This document shows positions 88 to 10,131 of a stretch of 64,000 nucleotides of DNA, piece by piece. The DNA comes from a virus. Position 1 is the first letter of the stretch, and each line of letters begins with the position of its first letter. Location: IMG/VR virus record IMGVR_UViG_3300045988_179859; one strand, written 5' to 3'. The position numbers were made by a program, and so were the translations under genes. Under the pieces are notes generated by a model, which saw nothing but the letters and a program-made list of their open reading frames with translations, was not told the origin of the DNA and did no database searches.

Positions 88-116
88 TTGATTTATTTTA
101 AAAATTGTGGTAGAAT
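88..116 (+). promoter_or_regulatory. sigma-A promoter (TTGATT-17-TGnTAGAAT)
   Basis: -35 at 88-93, 17-nt spacer, extended -10 at 109-116. Confidence 0.55.
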
Positions 117-1043: not shown

Positions 1044-1196
1044 AAAAGACATCGTTAAAATGACAGCCGTGACGGTTCTGACGGCTTTGCCAAATAAAAA
1101 TTGACCGAATTGATGATAGCTGTGACAGTTCTGACAGCTTAGACAACTAAAAAGTGACTGAAACGATGTAACGATGGAGTTTTCTCTATCGTTTTT
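1044..1196 (+). ncRNA. candidate small RNA with two covarying hairpins (or two micro-ORFs)
   Basis: hairpins 1065-1086 and 1118-1139 share the loop GAC(G/A)GTTCTG; their stems differ by compensatory changes. Confidence 0.35.
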
Positions 1197-2763: not shown

Positions 2764-3765
2764 ATGGACATGGTTGAGTTGATTGATATGTATCGAACTA
2801 AATTAGATAGTGATCCTTACAGTTGTTTGCTTTTCGCGTTACAGTTACCGAGTATTTGTTCACGAATAGAATATCCTAAAGATTCATCGTTCGATTTTGG
2901 TTTTTATAAAGGCGATAATCGTGTCGATGATGGAAGTTTATATAAAGTTTGGTTGTATAATCATATTGATTCTTTTAAATCTTTATTTTGTCCGCGGATT
3001 GATGTTAATTCGTTTATCAACGATATTTATAAATTGAGATGCAAATTAACGCATACGGGCATTTTATGTGATGATGATTGTCAAAGTGTTGATGCAGAAA
3101 CAACTTTTTATTTTGTTGACAGCCCATATCGAGAAGATGCTAAGTTTGAAAGGGAGGGTAGTTTATTCTTTTTACCATTACCGCAATTTTGTCGAACGAT
3201 GTATAATATTGCGGAAAATGTTATTTTTAGTAATACTATTCCTAACGTAACACCTTATTCTGATCTCTTATTATCGTCTGATGATTTTCATAGAATTCAA
3301 GCCGCGATTCATGTTAAGAATATTGCTGTTTCGGATGCAAGTGATTATGATGATAAAGATTGGTTACTTAAGAATATTTATGATAGATTGTTTGTTGCAA
3401 ATAATCCTTTTGAATTTAGATTAAAATTCATTAAAACAAAGAAGACGGCTAAGGACGCTGATCTTCGAGTATTAGGGTTTAATTCTAATACGAAAGAAGC
3501 TTTCGAAAAATTTTATGCTGAAAACCCTGGTGGTATTTATGAAATTTGGGATTTTTGTAATAAATATGATTGTGTTTTTGATGAAAATGAGTATTTTATT
3601 AAAAAGAAATATGATGAAGATAAATCGGAATTTTGTAAAAATTTCAAAAGATCTACAACTGTATTATGTTTATCTAAAAAAGATTATGATCGAATGTGCG
3701 AAGTTTGGTCTTCTCTTGATTATTTCGATAGACATTATTCTATGAGTTTGGATGATATTCTATAG
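2764..3765 (+). CDS. hypothetical protein, possible HEPN-like (Rx4H motif LRCKLTH)
   Basis: 333-aa ORF directly downstream of promoter 2701-2728; contains R-x4-H. Confidence 0.55.
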   Translation: MDMVELIDMYRTKLDSDPYSCLLFALQLPSICSRIEYPKDSSFDFGFYKGDNRVDDGSLYKVWLYNHIDSFKSLFCPRIDVNSFINDIYKLRCKLTHTGILCDDDCQSVDAETTFYFVDSPYREDAKFEREGSLFFLPLPQFCRTMYNIAENVIFSNTIPNVTPYSDLLLSSDDFHRIQAAIHVKNIAVSDASDYDDKDWLLKNIYDRLFVANNPFEFRLKFIKTKKTAKDADLRVLGFNSNTKEAFEKFYAENPGGIYEIWDFCNKYDCVFDENEYFIKKKYDEDKSEFCKNFKRSTTVLCLSKKDYDRMCEVWSSLDYFDRHYSMSLDDIL

Positions 3766-5044: not shown

Positions 5045-5527
5045 TTATTCGTTTACTTCTAGTAAATCAATTAGTATTTGTTGACATTCTTCTTGGAAAG
5101 ATCCGTTGCCTGAACATGCACCGCTGATGTGTACAGTGTCTAGAGCTGTTGCGCAAAGTTTTTTCAATCCGAGAGTGTATTCGTACAAGTGTTCATCTAT
5201 GTAGAAAACGTCAGCGCCTTTGTCTTCTGAGTAGAATACAATGAGACCATTATCAATACTGTGATAGTAATCGGCAATTTCTTCTTGGCGATATGCGACT
5301 CGTAAACCTTTTTTATCGTCATTCATGTCGAGGATTTCAGCGTTTACTCGGAAGTTGTCTAGATATTTGGAACCTTTATCGAAATCAGCTACAATGAATG
5401 AATCCATATTGTTTTTCAGCATGTAGTTATAGAGTTTTTTCAAGTTAGGTTCTAGTTTCTTTCCAAATTTTTCGATTTTAATCATATTTTCTTCTAGATT
5501 TTTACGTTGGAAATCTGTGTATAGCAT
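5045..5527 (-). CDS. hypothetical protein (160 aa) upstream of the MTase
   Basis: ORF with coding-like composition; no recognisable motif. Confidence 0.55.
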   Translation of the reverse strand: MLYTDFQRKNLEENMIKIEKFGKKLEPNLKKLYNYMLKNNMDSFIVADFDKGSKYLDNFRVNAEILDMNDDKKGLRVAYRQEEIADYYHSIDNGLIVFYSEDKGADVFYIDEHLYEYTLGLKKLCATALDTVHISGACSGNGSFQEECQQILIDLLEVNE

Positions 5528-5552: not shown

Positions 5553-7775
5553 TTATTCGTTCCAGATTTTATCGTTCAAGAAATCTTTCAACGTTGGTAA
5601 CGCTTTAGACGAACGCCAAATATCATATCGTTTTAATTGATCGTCTTTGAAATCTTTGCTCCATGATCCAATCATATAATTTGTAGGCGTTTTGTTCATA
5701 GACGGATCGCTTTCAACTTTTGTTTTAGAGCTCAATTGGAAATTCGCAAGCGAATTGTCCATATAGTTGAGTTCTGGGAATGTGACGGTCTTAATCGATG
5801 TTTTATCGAGTGGAATTTGATCGGCACTCAAACCAGAACCGATTTCTCTAACAGTGTCAGGTTTTGCGAAGTCTGATGTATCTTTTCCATCATTGAAGGC
5901 TTTCATAATAGCTACGAAGATGTCAGACCGTGTAGTTTGATCGGCGCTAATCCAATGGTCGGGCTCATTCGGTGAATCGTACCCTGTCCAGACACTAACG
6001 GCTGTATTCTTCGTACCACCACTCATCCACGAATCACTAGCTGATTGTTCAGGTCGAGGAACGCCGTCAGATTCATCATAAGCAACTGTACCTGTTTTGA
6101 CAAAGTAGCCTTTATATTCAGGAATTTTAGCGGATTTTGCGGAGCCGTCATCTTGAGGAACACCTTCAAGCATTTTCGCTAAGATGTACGCGGTTGATGC
6201 TTTCATTGCGCGTTTCTCATTCGGTTTGATCGTTTTAATGGATCCATCTGAAAACTCTAATTTATCGATATAATTAGGTTCGCGATAGATTCCGCCGTTA
6301 GCAATAGCACCGAAGCCTGCTGCGAAGTCAGCTGTTGACAAGTTCAATCCGAGAGCATCGGCACCGCCGTACGTTTCCTTGACATCCATATTGAGATTTT
6401 TCAAGAAGTTTTTAGCGAGATTCGATCCAGTAACTGTGTCGAGCATACGAATAGCCGGAGTATTAAGCGAAAGTCGTAAGGCTTTCTTCATATCAACAAC
6501 CCCGTACGTATATCCGCCGTAATTTTGTGCGACAATGTTCGTACCCGGATATTGGTACGGACTCGAATCCAATCTGTAATTAGATCCTAATTGTAGATAT
6601 TCGATACCCGGTGCATAATCGATAAACGGTTTAACGGTTGAACCGCTCGATCTGGTACGTTGCGTTGCACGGTTGTAACTGTACGGATTTTCTGATTTTT
6701 GATTTCGTGAACCAGACTGTGCGATAACAGCACCTGTTTGAGGGTTCGTTATCGTTACGGCGACTTGTTGTCCGTCGTTACGGTAGTATTTTGGATCGGA
6801 TACGATTGATTGAAGTTTTGAGTCTTCCGCTGAATCCATATTTGTGTAAATCTGAATCGGTGCCTTTTCAAGATCGTAACCGAGATCTTTTAATTGCTGA
6901 AGCGTCGATGTCACATAGGCGTTATGTTCAGAAACTTTAGAGAGTACTTCTTTATTGCGCCAATAACGTTCTTTTAAGCCATCAGTTACGTTGATCTTTT
7001 TAGCGGCTTCGTATTCTTTTTTTGTTAACAAATCATTCGAATAAGCCACGTAAAGAACAATGTTTTTTCTACGATTGGCTTCTTCAGGGTGATCGTAAGC
7101 GTTATATCCTGACGGGGCTTGTCCGAGCCCTGCGATATAGGCTAACCGAGCGATATTTTCCGGTGTTCGTTCAGACATTTGGTCTAACGATTTACCATAA
7201 TAGGTGATCGCTACAGTGTTTGCTCCGAATGACCCTTCACCCATAGCGATTTTGTTGACGTACCATTCAAGAATTTGTTTCTTATTCCAGTTTGTATCTA
7301 ACTGAAGTGCGAGCCAGAATTCTTTAATTTTACGTTCAACTGTTCTATCTTTAACATCACTAGAGAAGGCGACGTTCTTGATTAGCTGTTGTTCGATAGA
7401 AGAACCGCCACGACGTCCTCGTGAAAGAATAGCGTTTGCGAGACCTTTAATCGAAACACCTCGATCTTGGAAGAAGGTGTCGTCTTCTGTGTTTAACAGA
7501 AGTTTCACATACAAATCGGGCAATTTATCGTATTTGATGTAATTTCGACGGATGTCTGTTTGTGACCAAATAACATTGCCTTTTTTGTCGTACATGTTGG
7601 ATGTTGCTTCGCTACGGAGCATTTTTTCCGTAATGACAGGTGCTTTGTCGATAATGGTTTTCACCTTATAGGCTACAATAGGTGTGGCAATTAAGATTGT
7701 TACGCCTATTGTTATTGCGCTATATTTGAGAAACTTTTTTGCGAAAAAGCCTATTTTAGATAATACTGTTTTCAA
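5553..7775 (-). CDS. class A penicillin-binding protein (GT51 transglycosylase plus transpeptidase)
   Basis: N-terminal TM; GT51 motifs EDDTFFQDRG, GGSSIEQQLIKN and RKIKE; transpeptidase motifs STVK, SLN and KTGT. Confidence 0.9.
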   Translation of the reverse strand: MKTVLSKIGFFAKKFLKYSAITIGVTILIATPIVAYKVKTIIDKAPVITEKMLRSEATSNMYDKKGNVIWSQTDIRRNYIKYDKLPDLYVKLLLNTEDDTFFQDRGVSIKGLANAILSRGRRGGSSIEQQLIKNVAFSSDVKDRTVERKIKEFWLALQLDTNWNKKQILEWYVNKIAMGEGSFGANTVAITYYGKSLDQMSERTPENIARLAYIAGLGQAPSGYNAYDHPEEANRRKNIVLYVAYSNDLLTKKEYEAAKKINVTDGLKERYWRNKEVLSKVSEHNAYVTSTLQQLKDLGYDLEKAPIQIYTNMDSAEDSKLQSIVSDPKYYRNDGQQVAVTITNPQTGAVIAQSGSRNQKSENPYSYNRATQRTRSSGSTVKPFIDYAPGIEYLQLGSNYRLDSSPYQYPGTNIVAQNYGGYTYGVVDMKKALRLSLNTPAIRMLDTVTGSNLAKNFLKNLNMDVKETYGGADALGLNLSTADFAAGFGAIANGGIYREPNYIDKLEFSDGSIKTIKPNEKRAMKASTAYILAKMLEGVPQDDGSAKSAKIPEYKGYFVKTGTVAYDESDGVPRPEQSASDSWMSGGTKNTAVSVWTGYDSPNEPDHWISADQTTRSDIFVAIMKAFNDGKDTSDFAKPDTVREIGSGLSADQIPLDKTSIKTVTFPELNYMDNSLANFQLSSKTKVESDPSMNKTPTNYMIGSWSKDFKDDQLKRYDIWRSSKALPTLKDFLNDKIWNE

Positions 7776-9855: not shown

Positions 9856-10131
9856 TTATTTTACAACTTCTTTAAGTGCTTTACCAGCTTTGAATCCTGG
9901 AACTTTTGATGCAGGAATTACAAGTTCAGCACCTGTTTGAGGGTTACGCCCTTTACGTTCTGCACGTTCGCGAACATCGAAGCTACCAAATCCGATGATT
10001 TGTACTTTTTCACCGTTTGCAAGTGATTCAGAGATTGTATCAAAAACAGTGTTTACGACAAGAGCTGCTTGTTTCTTGCTCAATTCTGCTGTTTCAGCTA
10101 CTTTAGCGATCAAATCTTGTTTGTTTGCCAT
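9856..10131 (-). CDS. hup: HU-family DNA-binding protein
   Basis: 91 aa with the HU signature …RNPQTGAE…; close to Lactococcus/Streptococcus HU. Confidence 0.9.

Follow-up and report, generated by a model that had tools for sequence, protein, structure and literature searches.

The window analysed here, the whole 64,000-nucleotide (nt) stretch of IMG/VR virus record IMGVR_UViG_3300045988_179859, carries at positions 1044 to 1198 what is very probably a stand-alone gene for a structured non-coding RNA (ncRNA), with a closing helix (P1) and two hairpins, bracketed by its own promoter and terminator. The gene is one member of a long array of RNA cassettes. As the best explanation of the whole we propose a stand-alone ncRNA acting as an antitoxin-like decoy, to which we assign a probability of roughly 40%. 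The features of the locus are as follows.

1009 to 1037, + strand: near-consensus promoter of the sigma-70 type with extended -10, by sequence reading (-35 box TTGCAT at 1009 to 1014, spacer of 17 nt, TG at 1029 to 1030, -10 box TAGAAT at 1032 to 1037)
1044 to 1198, + strand: predicted primary transcript of about 150 to 155 nt, a structured ncRNA, from the positions of promoter and terminator
1049 to 1056, + strand: 5' strand of the closing helix P1, ACAUCGUU, 8 base pairs (bp), pairing with 1162 to 1169
1060 to 1112, + strand: repeat unit 1 (53 nt), with stem 1065 to 1070/1081 to 1086 and A-rich linker 1087 to 1102
1060 to 1104, + strand: micro open reading frame (micro-ORF) 1, MTAVTVLTALPNKN, not a gene
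1065 to 1086, + strand: hairpin 1 (5' arm AGCCGT at 1065 to 1070, loop GACGGTTCTG at 1071 to 1080, 3' arm ACGGCT at 1081 to 1086)
1103 to 1107, + strand: probable pseudoknot partner of unit 1, GACCG, pairing with loop CGGUU at 1073 to 1077
1113 to 1161, + strand: repeat unit 2, with stem 1118 to 1123/1134 to 1139 and A-rich linker 1140 to 1155
1113 to 1142, + strand: micro-ORF 2, MIAVTVLTA, not a gene
1118 to 1139, + strand: hairpin 2 (5' arm AGCTGT at 1118 to 1123, loop GACAGTTCTG at 1124 to 1133, 3' arm ACAGCT at 1134 to 1139)
1156 to 1160, + strand: probable pseudoknot partner of unit 2, GACUG, pairing with loop CAGUU at 1126 to 1130
1162 to 1169, + strand: 3' strand of P1, AACGAUGU, from the minimum free energy (MFE) fold, the alignment and RNAalifold
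1170 to 1198, + strand: intrinsic terminator from a terminator scan, stem 1170 to 1193 followed by a T-run

The promoter is a member of D1, a promoter family repeated along the array, and is kept in all homologues of the window's own lineage (type A, below). Segment 1044 to 1198 has an MFE of -38.7 kcal/mol (z = -2.68 against dinucleotide shuffles), and in the MFE fold P1 encloses both hairpins and abuts the terminator. The 10-bp terminator stem (AACGATGGAG/CTCTATCGTT, loop TTTT) remains paired in relatives despite substitutions that turn G.U into A-U and A-U into G.U. The -35 box of the next promoter (1199 to 1227) lies 5 nt past the terminator T-run, and no plausible ORF was found downstream of the terminator in the window.

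An earlier reading of the same DNA from its letters alone (the sequence-only reading) had reported two tandem hairpins, and these are present where it placed them. The pattern GTGACNGTTCTGACNGCT matches exactly twice in the 64 kb, even with two mismatches allowed, with 0.00 matches expected from shuffles. Both hairpins lie inside a 53-nt tandem repeat (1060 to 1162, 1.9 copies, 82% matches by Tandem Repeats Finder), so that the pair represents a single duplication. The C>T and G>A differences between the two stems are indeed compensatory; the covariation read from them, though, amounts within the window to one duplication plus one or two events, and it is only through the homologues that it acquires significance. 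To the third coordinated change that had been seen, G>A in the loop, we add a fourth that had escaped notice, a matching C>T in the downstream linker (GACCG at 1103 to 1107, GACTG at 1156 to 1160). Judged from these letters, the joint change of loop and linker is a mark of a second base-pairing and not of a codon constraint. What the sequence-only reading had passed over was the setting of its duplicated hairpins: promoter, terminator, P1, pseudoknot, 53-nt unit and the surrounding array of RNA genes.

Some 30 homologous loci, all metagenomic, form two diverged lineages with different promoters (types A and B) and one type C. Five of them are syntenic with the window and were reached through neighbouring proteins, a route unbiased for the RNA (cassette identity 88 to 97%); 25 more came from a metagenome scan with AGCNGTGACNGTTCTGACNGYTT. 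Type A loci share the window's promoter and P1 and exist in versions with two units, with one unit (unit 2 missing in L030, L031, L055, L060 and L063) and with the loop of unit 2 deleted (L049, L052 and L062). The nine type B loci (G+C content, GC, 31 to 32%) have a promoter of the form TTGACA-17-TAYAAT with TG, placed as far from P1 as in type A, together with a P1 of different sequence (GAACAUCAGAA/UUCUGAUGUUC), a diverged second hairpin (AGGUGU/ACACCU or ACGUGU/ACACGU) and about 70 nt between P1 and terminator. Type C is L042 alone; its two units are arranged co-linearly with a skipping-rope RNA and further RNA modules. A unit covariance model run over 40 loci brought up no additional copies of greater divergence. 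Scans of viral contigs gave 16 matches to the hairpin pattern, rejected as chance matches in unrelated coding DNA, a single match to a loose unit pattern, likewise rejected as chance in high-GC coding DNA, and none to the tail pattern.

For the structure tests, full-length sequences (15 distinct) and units (28 distinct) were aligned with MAFFT, N padding keeping the register fixed. Across the full-length set 97.8% of 450 cells are paired, compared with 20 to 45% when the partners are slid by 1 to 3 columns; both sides change in 8 of the 30 pairs, and the covariation score was reached by none of 500 shuffles. P1 is 98.3% paired, with changes on both sides in half of its eight pairs (GC/AU, UA/GC, UA/AU and CG/UA), and the two hairpin stems, H1 and H2, are each 100% paired. 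Among the units, the stem is 100% paired and three of its six pairs covary (GC/CG, CG/GC and UA/CG swaps). RNAalifold, run on an ordinary unbiased MAFFT alignment, recovered P1, H1 and H2 independently with six covarying pairs, and when the window, type B and one-unit versions are each folded as single sequences, P1 and hairpins appear every time (z = -2.7 to -3.3). G.U pairs are tolerated on the + strand only, which is the sense of the promoter. The duplicated structured RNA that the sequence-only reading had preferred of its two options is thus borne out: homologues keep the stems by compensatory changes.

Within each unit, a pairing is possible between the loop motif CNGU(U) and the segment (G)ACNG, which follows the stem after 16 nt of A-rich linker, and the change from GACGG to GACAG in the loop between units is matched by that from GACCG to GACUG in the linker. 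The four-pair core of this interaction is 99.1% paired, against 1 to 45% in slid registers. Its variable pair is G:C in 21 distinct units, A:U in four, U:A in one (unit 2 of L042) and G.U in one; in the window it is G:C in unit 1 and A:U in unit 2. The linker covaries with the loop and not with the 5' arm, as in unit 1 of type B, where arm CUGU accompanies loop CGGU and linker ACCG. The third loop spans 16 nt, is A-rich and contains an invariant AAAA. From this pattern of pairing, each unit is probably an H-type pseudoknot.

Taken together, the data give good support to a new family of structured RNA, closed by P1 and holding one or two H-type pseudoknots, that is absent from Rfam 15: no entry reached its gathering threshold over the RNA, the best being the archaeal C/D small RNA (sRNA) sR12 at 14.9 bits against a required 38. 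The family is common to two diverged groups of giant conjugative plasmid-like elements known from metagenomes only.

How might such an RNA work? In the mechanism that we favour, the sigma-70-type promoter would start transcription a few bases before P1, which would enclose one or two pseudoknot units of about 53 nt and be abutted by the terminator. The transcript would act in trans by binding a protein, not on a downstream gene; trans action is assumed because type A lacks a regulated gene downstream. As an orphan decoy resembling a type III antitoxin (TenpI/ToxI-like), it would sequester a ribonuclease-type toxin or an abortive-infection effector in the host or recipient cell, and its gene would belong to an accessory island, made up of RNA genes only, on a giant conjugative plasmid-like element. 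That the RNA is a trans-acting protein binder is in our estimation an even bet; the narrower claim that it is specifically an antitoxin-like decoy, which rests on analogy, is tentative and better doubted than assumed.

The analogy begins with layout, since the locus reads promoter, 1.9 non-identical 53-nt repeats, terminator, and the relatives hold one repeat, two, or two of which one is degraded. Type III antitoxin repeats measure about 31 to 62 nt in about 2 to 5.6 copies, those of tenpI 39 to 57 nt in 1.9 to 3.0 copies (Blower et al., PMC3401426); the length of 53 nt, at 1.9 copies, falls within the former range. According to a 2025 survey (PMC12283969), which also reports TenpN in Streptococcus phages, TenpI lies between a promoter and a rho-independent terminator; its repeats, about two in number, are longer and non-identical, form H-type pseudoknots and have a conserved A stretch. 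Type III antitoxin repeats each fold into a pseudoknot, and CptI and TenpI have A-rich tertiary contacts; each repeat of the present RNA is likewise modelled as a pseudoknot, its A-rich third loop carrying the invariant AAAA. As in TenpI, this A stretch stands where it could touch stem 1, the number of copies is variable and a mobile element carries the RNA. The placing of the RNA between promoter and rho-independent terminator is a further likeness to type III antitoxins.

Several observations weigh against this interpretation. An endoribonuclease gene (ToxN, CptN, TenpN), which would be expected right after the terminator of a type III antitoxin, is downstream in none of the loci, nor was any nuclease-like gene found downstream in the roughly 30 loci. 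Those window ORFs that were scanned included no protein resembling ToxN, TenpN or PBECR, and no partner protein or toxin for the RNA came to light. Rfam gave no match to a known antitoxin at E<=10, and the tenpI region upstream of the tenpN homologue NP_795708 in S. pyogenes prophage 315.6, in which Tandem Repeats Finder detects no repeats, bears no resemblance to the RNA. With neither toxin gene nor antitoxin similarity, we therefore do not file it as a member of the type III antitoxins. It further differs from them in that P1 closes the whole molecule; as modelled, a helix around both units suggests one compact fold and not processed repeats, and we know of no such closing helix in the precursors of type III antitoxins, whose repeats are processed: the cognate toxin cleaves the RNA into units and is inhibited by it. 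The type B RNA precedes a conserved ORF of 68 amino acids (aa), and there the RNA may have a cis role. On the structural side, much of one hairpin per locus was predetermined by the scan pattern, which leaves the N positions, the second unit, P1 and the linker to carry the information; independent compensatory events are few, by our estimate about 9 to 10, and for the most part they distinguish only two clades; the variable pair is broken to C.U in one distinct unit (L056/L057) by a change that is synonymous in micro-ORF 2; and the pseudoknot is graded only probable because a single variable pair carries the evidence.

The type B neighbourhood deserves description in its own right. Downstream of the RNA come the 68-aa ORF and then M78-like, YpsA-SLOG and helicase genes. 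A conserved 68-75-aa protein follows every type B RNA examined, and some type A arrays contain it as their sole protein-coding cassette; the window does not encode it. Strict linkage between RNA and ORF was considered and rejected, given type A arrays in which the ORF lies two cassettes from the RNA and a window that is without it. Examples of the ORF are:

L050, 3061 to 3267: ORF of the 68-75-aa protein
L041, 3873 to 4082: ORF of the 68-75-aa protein
L046, 7285 to 7512: ORF of the 68-75-aa protein
L062, 10763 to 10945: ORF of the 68-75-aa protein

The RNA of 1044 to 1198 is embedded in an array whose other main features are:

1 to 2480, + strand: array of promoter/short RNA/terminator cassettes, in which this RNA is the sixth in the window
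88 to 116 (promoter) and 393 to 420 (terminator), + strand: cassette 2
about 460 to 654, + strand: cassette 3 RNA (promoter 425 to 453, terminator 630 to 654)
L067, 3443 to 3650, and L069, L070 and L074, about 2255 to 2500: homologue loci of cassette 3

Cassette 3 bears directly on the proposed function. It shares 83% identity with part of a Lactobacillus plasmid and aligns by conserved blocks with RNAs of Streptococcus and Lactococcus, a family that is not in Rfam. All those loci have the order promoter, RNA, terminator, Shine-Dalgarno and a gene for a protein of 211 to 218 aa, of a family named PBECR4 in UniRef, one member of which (P0129) exceeds the threshold of Pfam PF18813 (32.7 bits against 27). 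No PBECR4 gene was found in the window or in related loci. As far as its sequence goes, cassette 3 is demonstrably a partner-less, orphan copy of an RNA that elsewhere is coupled to a predicted RNase gene, and the pairing of RNA and PBECR4 is a candidate for a new type III-like toxin-antitoxin family in Lactobacillales. The two RNAs are array neighbours of the same cassette design, with no similarity in sequence or fold; the existence of such an orphan next door strengthens the claim that the pseudoknot RNA works like an antitoxin.

The array as a whole consists of at least 16 consecutive same-strand cassettes, each with a noncoding part of 60 to 450 nt, and continues with the same cassette pattern for about 330 nt upstream of the window (6906 to 7237 of source contig L001, which was reached through the adjoining 333-aa ORF). 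Positions 1 to 2800 of the window contain 14 promoter-like sites against 8.2 expected (standard deviation, sd, 2.8) and 13 terminator-like sites against 2.0 expected (sd 1.5); the strong sites of both kinds are all on the + strand and alternate. No protein gene was called across about 2.8 kb of L001. Backbones that are otherwise near-identical differ by gain, loss, duplication and reordering of cassettes. The only gathering-level Rfam match in the window is a skipping-rope RNA (RF02924) at 311 to 388 (54 bits), and no other Rfam match was found within the array. This RNA shares one transcript, cassette 2, with 3.1 copies of a 36-nt repeat upstream of it (134 to 245), each of which can form a small hairpin and a pseudoknot-like loop-to-downstream pairing with an A-rich tail. 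An identification of these repeats as ToxI was rejected: period and part of the sequence are alike, and the top local score in the window, 28, falls on these repeats but is not significant beside 27 and 26 elsewhere.

Other parts of the array were noted in passing. The cassette 5 RNA (891 to 1005) contains GGAGAUUCCSCGCC, and a related module stands three times directly 3' of the pseudoknot units in L042 (minus strand, about 1405 to 1545), making the two RNAs neighbours in two different arrangements. Between 1808 and 2150 lie three consecutive paralogous cassettes of a second repeat family, D2, 60 to 73% identical over promoter and flanks, with RNAs of about 70 to 80 nt each. In the array of L043, a RAGATH-18 RNA (9932 to 10032, 64 bits) lies just upstream of the pseudoknot RNA, and in L042 (segment 3600 to 7242) the units and the skipping-rope RNA are accompanied by seven tRNA genes and by two weak YrlA-like matches.

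Upstream, the array is bordered by an IS200/IS605-type pair (L001, 4196 to 6256), a Y1 transposase and a 514-aa TnpB/Cas12f-like protein (PADLOC Cas12f, E 4e-13) that is truncated to 300 aa in L021. The array is adjoined by a 333-aa ORF (2764 to 3765) that is hypervariable, its protein being about 35 to 37% identical where the flanking DNA is about 90% identical. Its other homologues sit among EcoRI-like methylase, HNH, GmrSD, HEPN-AbiU2 and restriction genes, and it is likely a defence or counter-defence gene; it has no Pfam, PADLOC or NCBIfam match. Among neighbouring ORFs without an assigned family, PADLOC, NCBIfam and PHROGs revealed no defence or RNA-binding partner; their single yield was the TnpB-like gene upstream of the array. 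A 160-aa ORF (5045 to 5527), between the methylase and the PBP-like gene, occurs in all relatives and has no family match in any library tried.

The rest of the window is a conjugative plasmid-like element with a MobL relaxase, a type IV coupling protein, a topoisomerase and a D5-type primase; it also encodes a ParM/Alp-like actin, a sortase, a PBP1A-like protein and a C5 methylase, and its GbpC/SSSPR adhesin hints at Streptococcus. Related contigs of 110 to 300 kb are metagenomic only, and no close relatives were found in PLSDB, the phage collection or species-representative genomes. Near and distant BLAST searches of PLSDB and the phage collection with the array, the cassette and the type B RNA returned nothing, with the sole exception of cassette 3 on one Lactobacillus plasmid. 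A scan of the genome collection with the neighbouring PBP-like protein matched only chromosomal PBPs of Jeotgalicoccus (27 to 28% identity), so no isolate genome in that collection carries the element; in the IMG/VR relative L039, with a PBP-like protein 82% identical, the array is missing at the corresponding position. The type B loci, with 31 to 32% GC and contigs of up to 260 to 290 kb (L047, L051), resemble the published oral 'Inocle' giant elements, which share a conserved transglycosylase-PBP protein and VirB4/VirD4; the PBP-like gene of the window is at 5553 to 7775. The window itself was rejected as an Inocle and is a related kind at most, its GC being 38 to 40% against 31 to 32% for type B and Inocle. 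It may represent a family of giant plasmid-like elements related to Inocle and distinct from it.

Returning to function, skipping-rope RNA has been reported to be protein-associated (PMC5737381), and this association, the repeats of cassette 2, the turnover of cassettes and the hypervariable ORF fit the role of decoy or anti-addiction agent in an arms race. A bolder extension, which we consider doubtful, is that the island (1 to 2480 and the part upstream) is an RNA-only anti-defence arsenal of at least 16 partner-less RNAs, independently and strongly transcribed, each a decoy or antidote against a different immune effector or nuclease-type toxin in host or recipient, with type III-like antitoxins, the PBECR4-associated RNA, skipping-rope and the ToxI-like repeats as candidates. 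If it were true, cassettes would be swapped between giant oral plasmid-like elements in an arms race, and the RNA of 1044 to 1198 would serve as antidote to toxins of a family still to be recognised. More generally, should these RNAs be decoys or antitoxins, mobile elements would carry RNA-based anti-defence islands that protein-centred surveys of leading regions and anti-defence loci would miss, and a role open to testing would become available for several orphan Rfam motifs, skipping-rope and RAGATH-18 among them.

Among the alternatives, the one that survives best, unlikely as we judge it, is a trans-acting base-pairing sRNA whose junction AUGAUAG, loops and A-rich linkers pair with mRNAs of host or plasmid. 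Prophage- and plasmid-borne sRNAs do regulate mRNAs by pairing, and the independent promoter/terminator unit, the size, the mobile carrier and several conserved nucleotides left unpaired in the model would all suit this role. Nearly all of the conserved sequence, however, lies in P1, the stems or the pseudoknot, where variation is compensatory; beyond the A-runs there is no seed-like conserved single-stranded stretch, and duplicated modules are unusual for sRNAs that pair by a seed.

Distinctly unlikely is a leader acting in cis, be it an aptamer of riboswitch type or an attenuator that depends on a protein, with the terminator controlling read-through into the sequence beyond. An H-type pseudoknot does look aptamer-like when its third loop is A-rich, P1 closes it and a terminator comes directly after, and in the window the 3' strand of P1 (AACGAUGU) and the 5' arm of the terminator (AACGAUGG) are direct repeats, so that the 5' strand of P1 could alternatively pair with the terminator arm. 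In type B, moreover, RNA and terminator precede the conserved 68-aa ORF with its Shine-Dalgarno. Yet every type A locus has a promoter and a noncoding cassette right after the terminator and no regulated ORF, most relatives (AGCGAUAG) could form the alternative pairing only in weakened form and type B not at all, and Rfam holds no riboswitch family that matches. Weinberg et al. concluded likewise for analogous terminator-ended motifs (PMC5737381).

That the transcript is a ligand sponge, an aptamer expressed at a high level and devoid of an expression platform, titrating a small molecule such as a second messenger of defence, appears very unlikely. A compact pseudoknot with invariant loop and linker nucleotides, present as one or two modules behind a strong promoter, in a variable accessory island beside likely defence or anti-defence genes, would lend itself to such use; the case is purely architectural, however, no known aptamer class is similar, and we know of no precedent for RNA sponges of immune signals.

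An element acting at the level of DNA, be it iterons or another protein-binding repeat, or single-stranded DNA (ssDNA) hairpins serving as a priming site or single-strand promoter, has a slim chance at best. TGACNG occurs about seven times in 110 nt with 9-nt spacing, the carrier is conjugative (MobL relaxase, coupling protein), and covariation alone cannot separate RNA from ssDNA. Against this, protein sites in duplex DNA conserve sequence and not complementarity, G.U (G.T) is tolerated on the + strand only, the element is bracketed exactly by a canonical duplex promoter and a terminator in each of two lineages whose promoters differ, and the TGACNG periodicity is explained by the 3' arm of the stem, the loop and the pseudoknot partner.

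The last alternative, raised by the sequence-only reading itself, was two copies of a tiny hydrophobic peptide acting as pheromone or leader peptide, to which we add toxin. The ATG frames at 1060 and 1113 exist, and neither is preceded by a Shine-Dalgarno. The comparison of homologues that had been suggested as a check refuted the peptides: in homologues the peptides change or vanish while the stems persist, which is the converse case that the sequence-only reading had named as fatal to them. In type B, micro-ORF 1 has no in-frame start (a GTG, TTG or ATG one nt out of register yields M-K-L-stop), and micro-ORF 2 encodes MIGVYGTDTFAK or MIRVSGTDTFAK, different in sequence and length, in place of MIAVTVLTA. 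Within type A, the changes in micro-ORF 1 are T2I, A9V, L10S and L10stop, none of them synonymous, and A9V is a G-C to G.U change in the stem; those in micro-ORF 2 are T5I, L7P, a deletion of three codons and one synonymous change (L056/L057). The ATG of micro-ORF 2 is kept in both lineages, where the conserved AUGAUA is an RNA junction motif. The micro-ORFs are, on their sequences, an incidental by-product of the RNA, and no support emerged for a pheromone or leader-peptide role. Even granted that the frames exist, that the ATG of micro-ORF 2 is common to both lineages and that the only change breaking the pseudoknot (A>C) is synonymous in it, a peptide function has next to no chance, in view of the missing Shine-Dalgarno, the loss or alteration of the frames in type B, the non-synonymous and nonsense changes in type A, double changes that keep the stems and alter the peptide, and a length of 9 to 14 aa that is too short for a membrane toxin.

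The antitoxin-like decoy that we favour can finally be placed beside known RNAs other than the type III antitoxins. Aptamers of the preQ1-I and SAM-II class consist of a hairpin, an A-rich strand and a short 3' segment that pairs back to the loop. The RNA described here shares this pseudoknot topology and differs from it in its larger stems, its third loop of 16 nt and its want of an expression platform, a regulated gene in type A and a covariance-model match. Box C/D sRNAs have RUGAUGA and CUGA boxes, unstructured guides of 10 to 12 nt and hosts with fibrillarin, Nop5 and L7Ae; the context here is bacterial, and this identity, suggested by weak Rfam matches, was rejected, as UGAUGA- and CUGA-like strings are present but the would-be guides are self-complementary and covary as a stem, with scores far below threshold. 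A resemblance of the linker to the tail of a Cas9 tracrRNA or sgRNA was likewise rejected as no better than background, with no match to an Rfam tracrRNA.

Closer in kind are skipping-rope, drum, DUF3800-I, FuFi-1 and RAGATH-18, which are also structured, covarying RNAs with an intrinsic terminator on mobile elements. Such orphan terminator-ended motifs are rarely located in 5' untranslated regions (Weinberg et al. 2015/2017). They differ from our RNA in fold and sequence, and were described singly and not in multi-cassette arrays. The nearest functional model for the proposed decoy is pseudo-ToxI of the Pectobacterium phage phiTE. Pseudo-ToxI is a recognisable ToxI homologue on a phage, with an activity demonstrated genetically, whereas the pseudoknot RNA, a putative decoy, has no homology to a known antitoxin and travels on a conjugative element. 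Orphan antitoxin mimicry of the phiTE type is reportedly an established form of counter-defence, and the likeness lies in what both would have in common, a mobile element supplied with an antitoxin-like RNA, without a toxin, that neutralises an abortive-infection toxin of the host.

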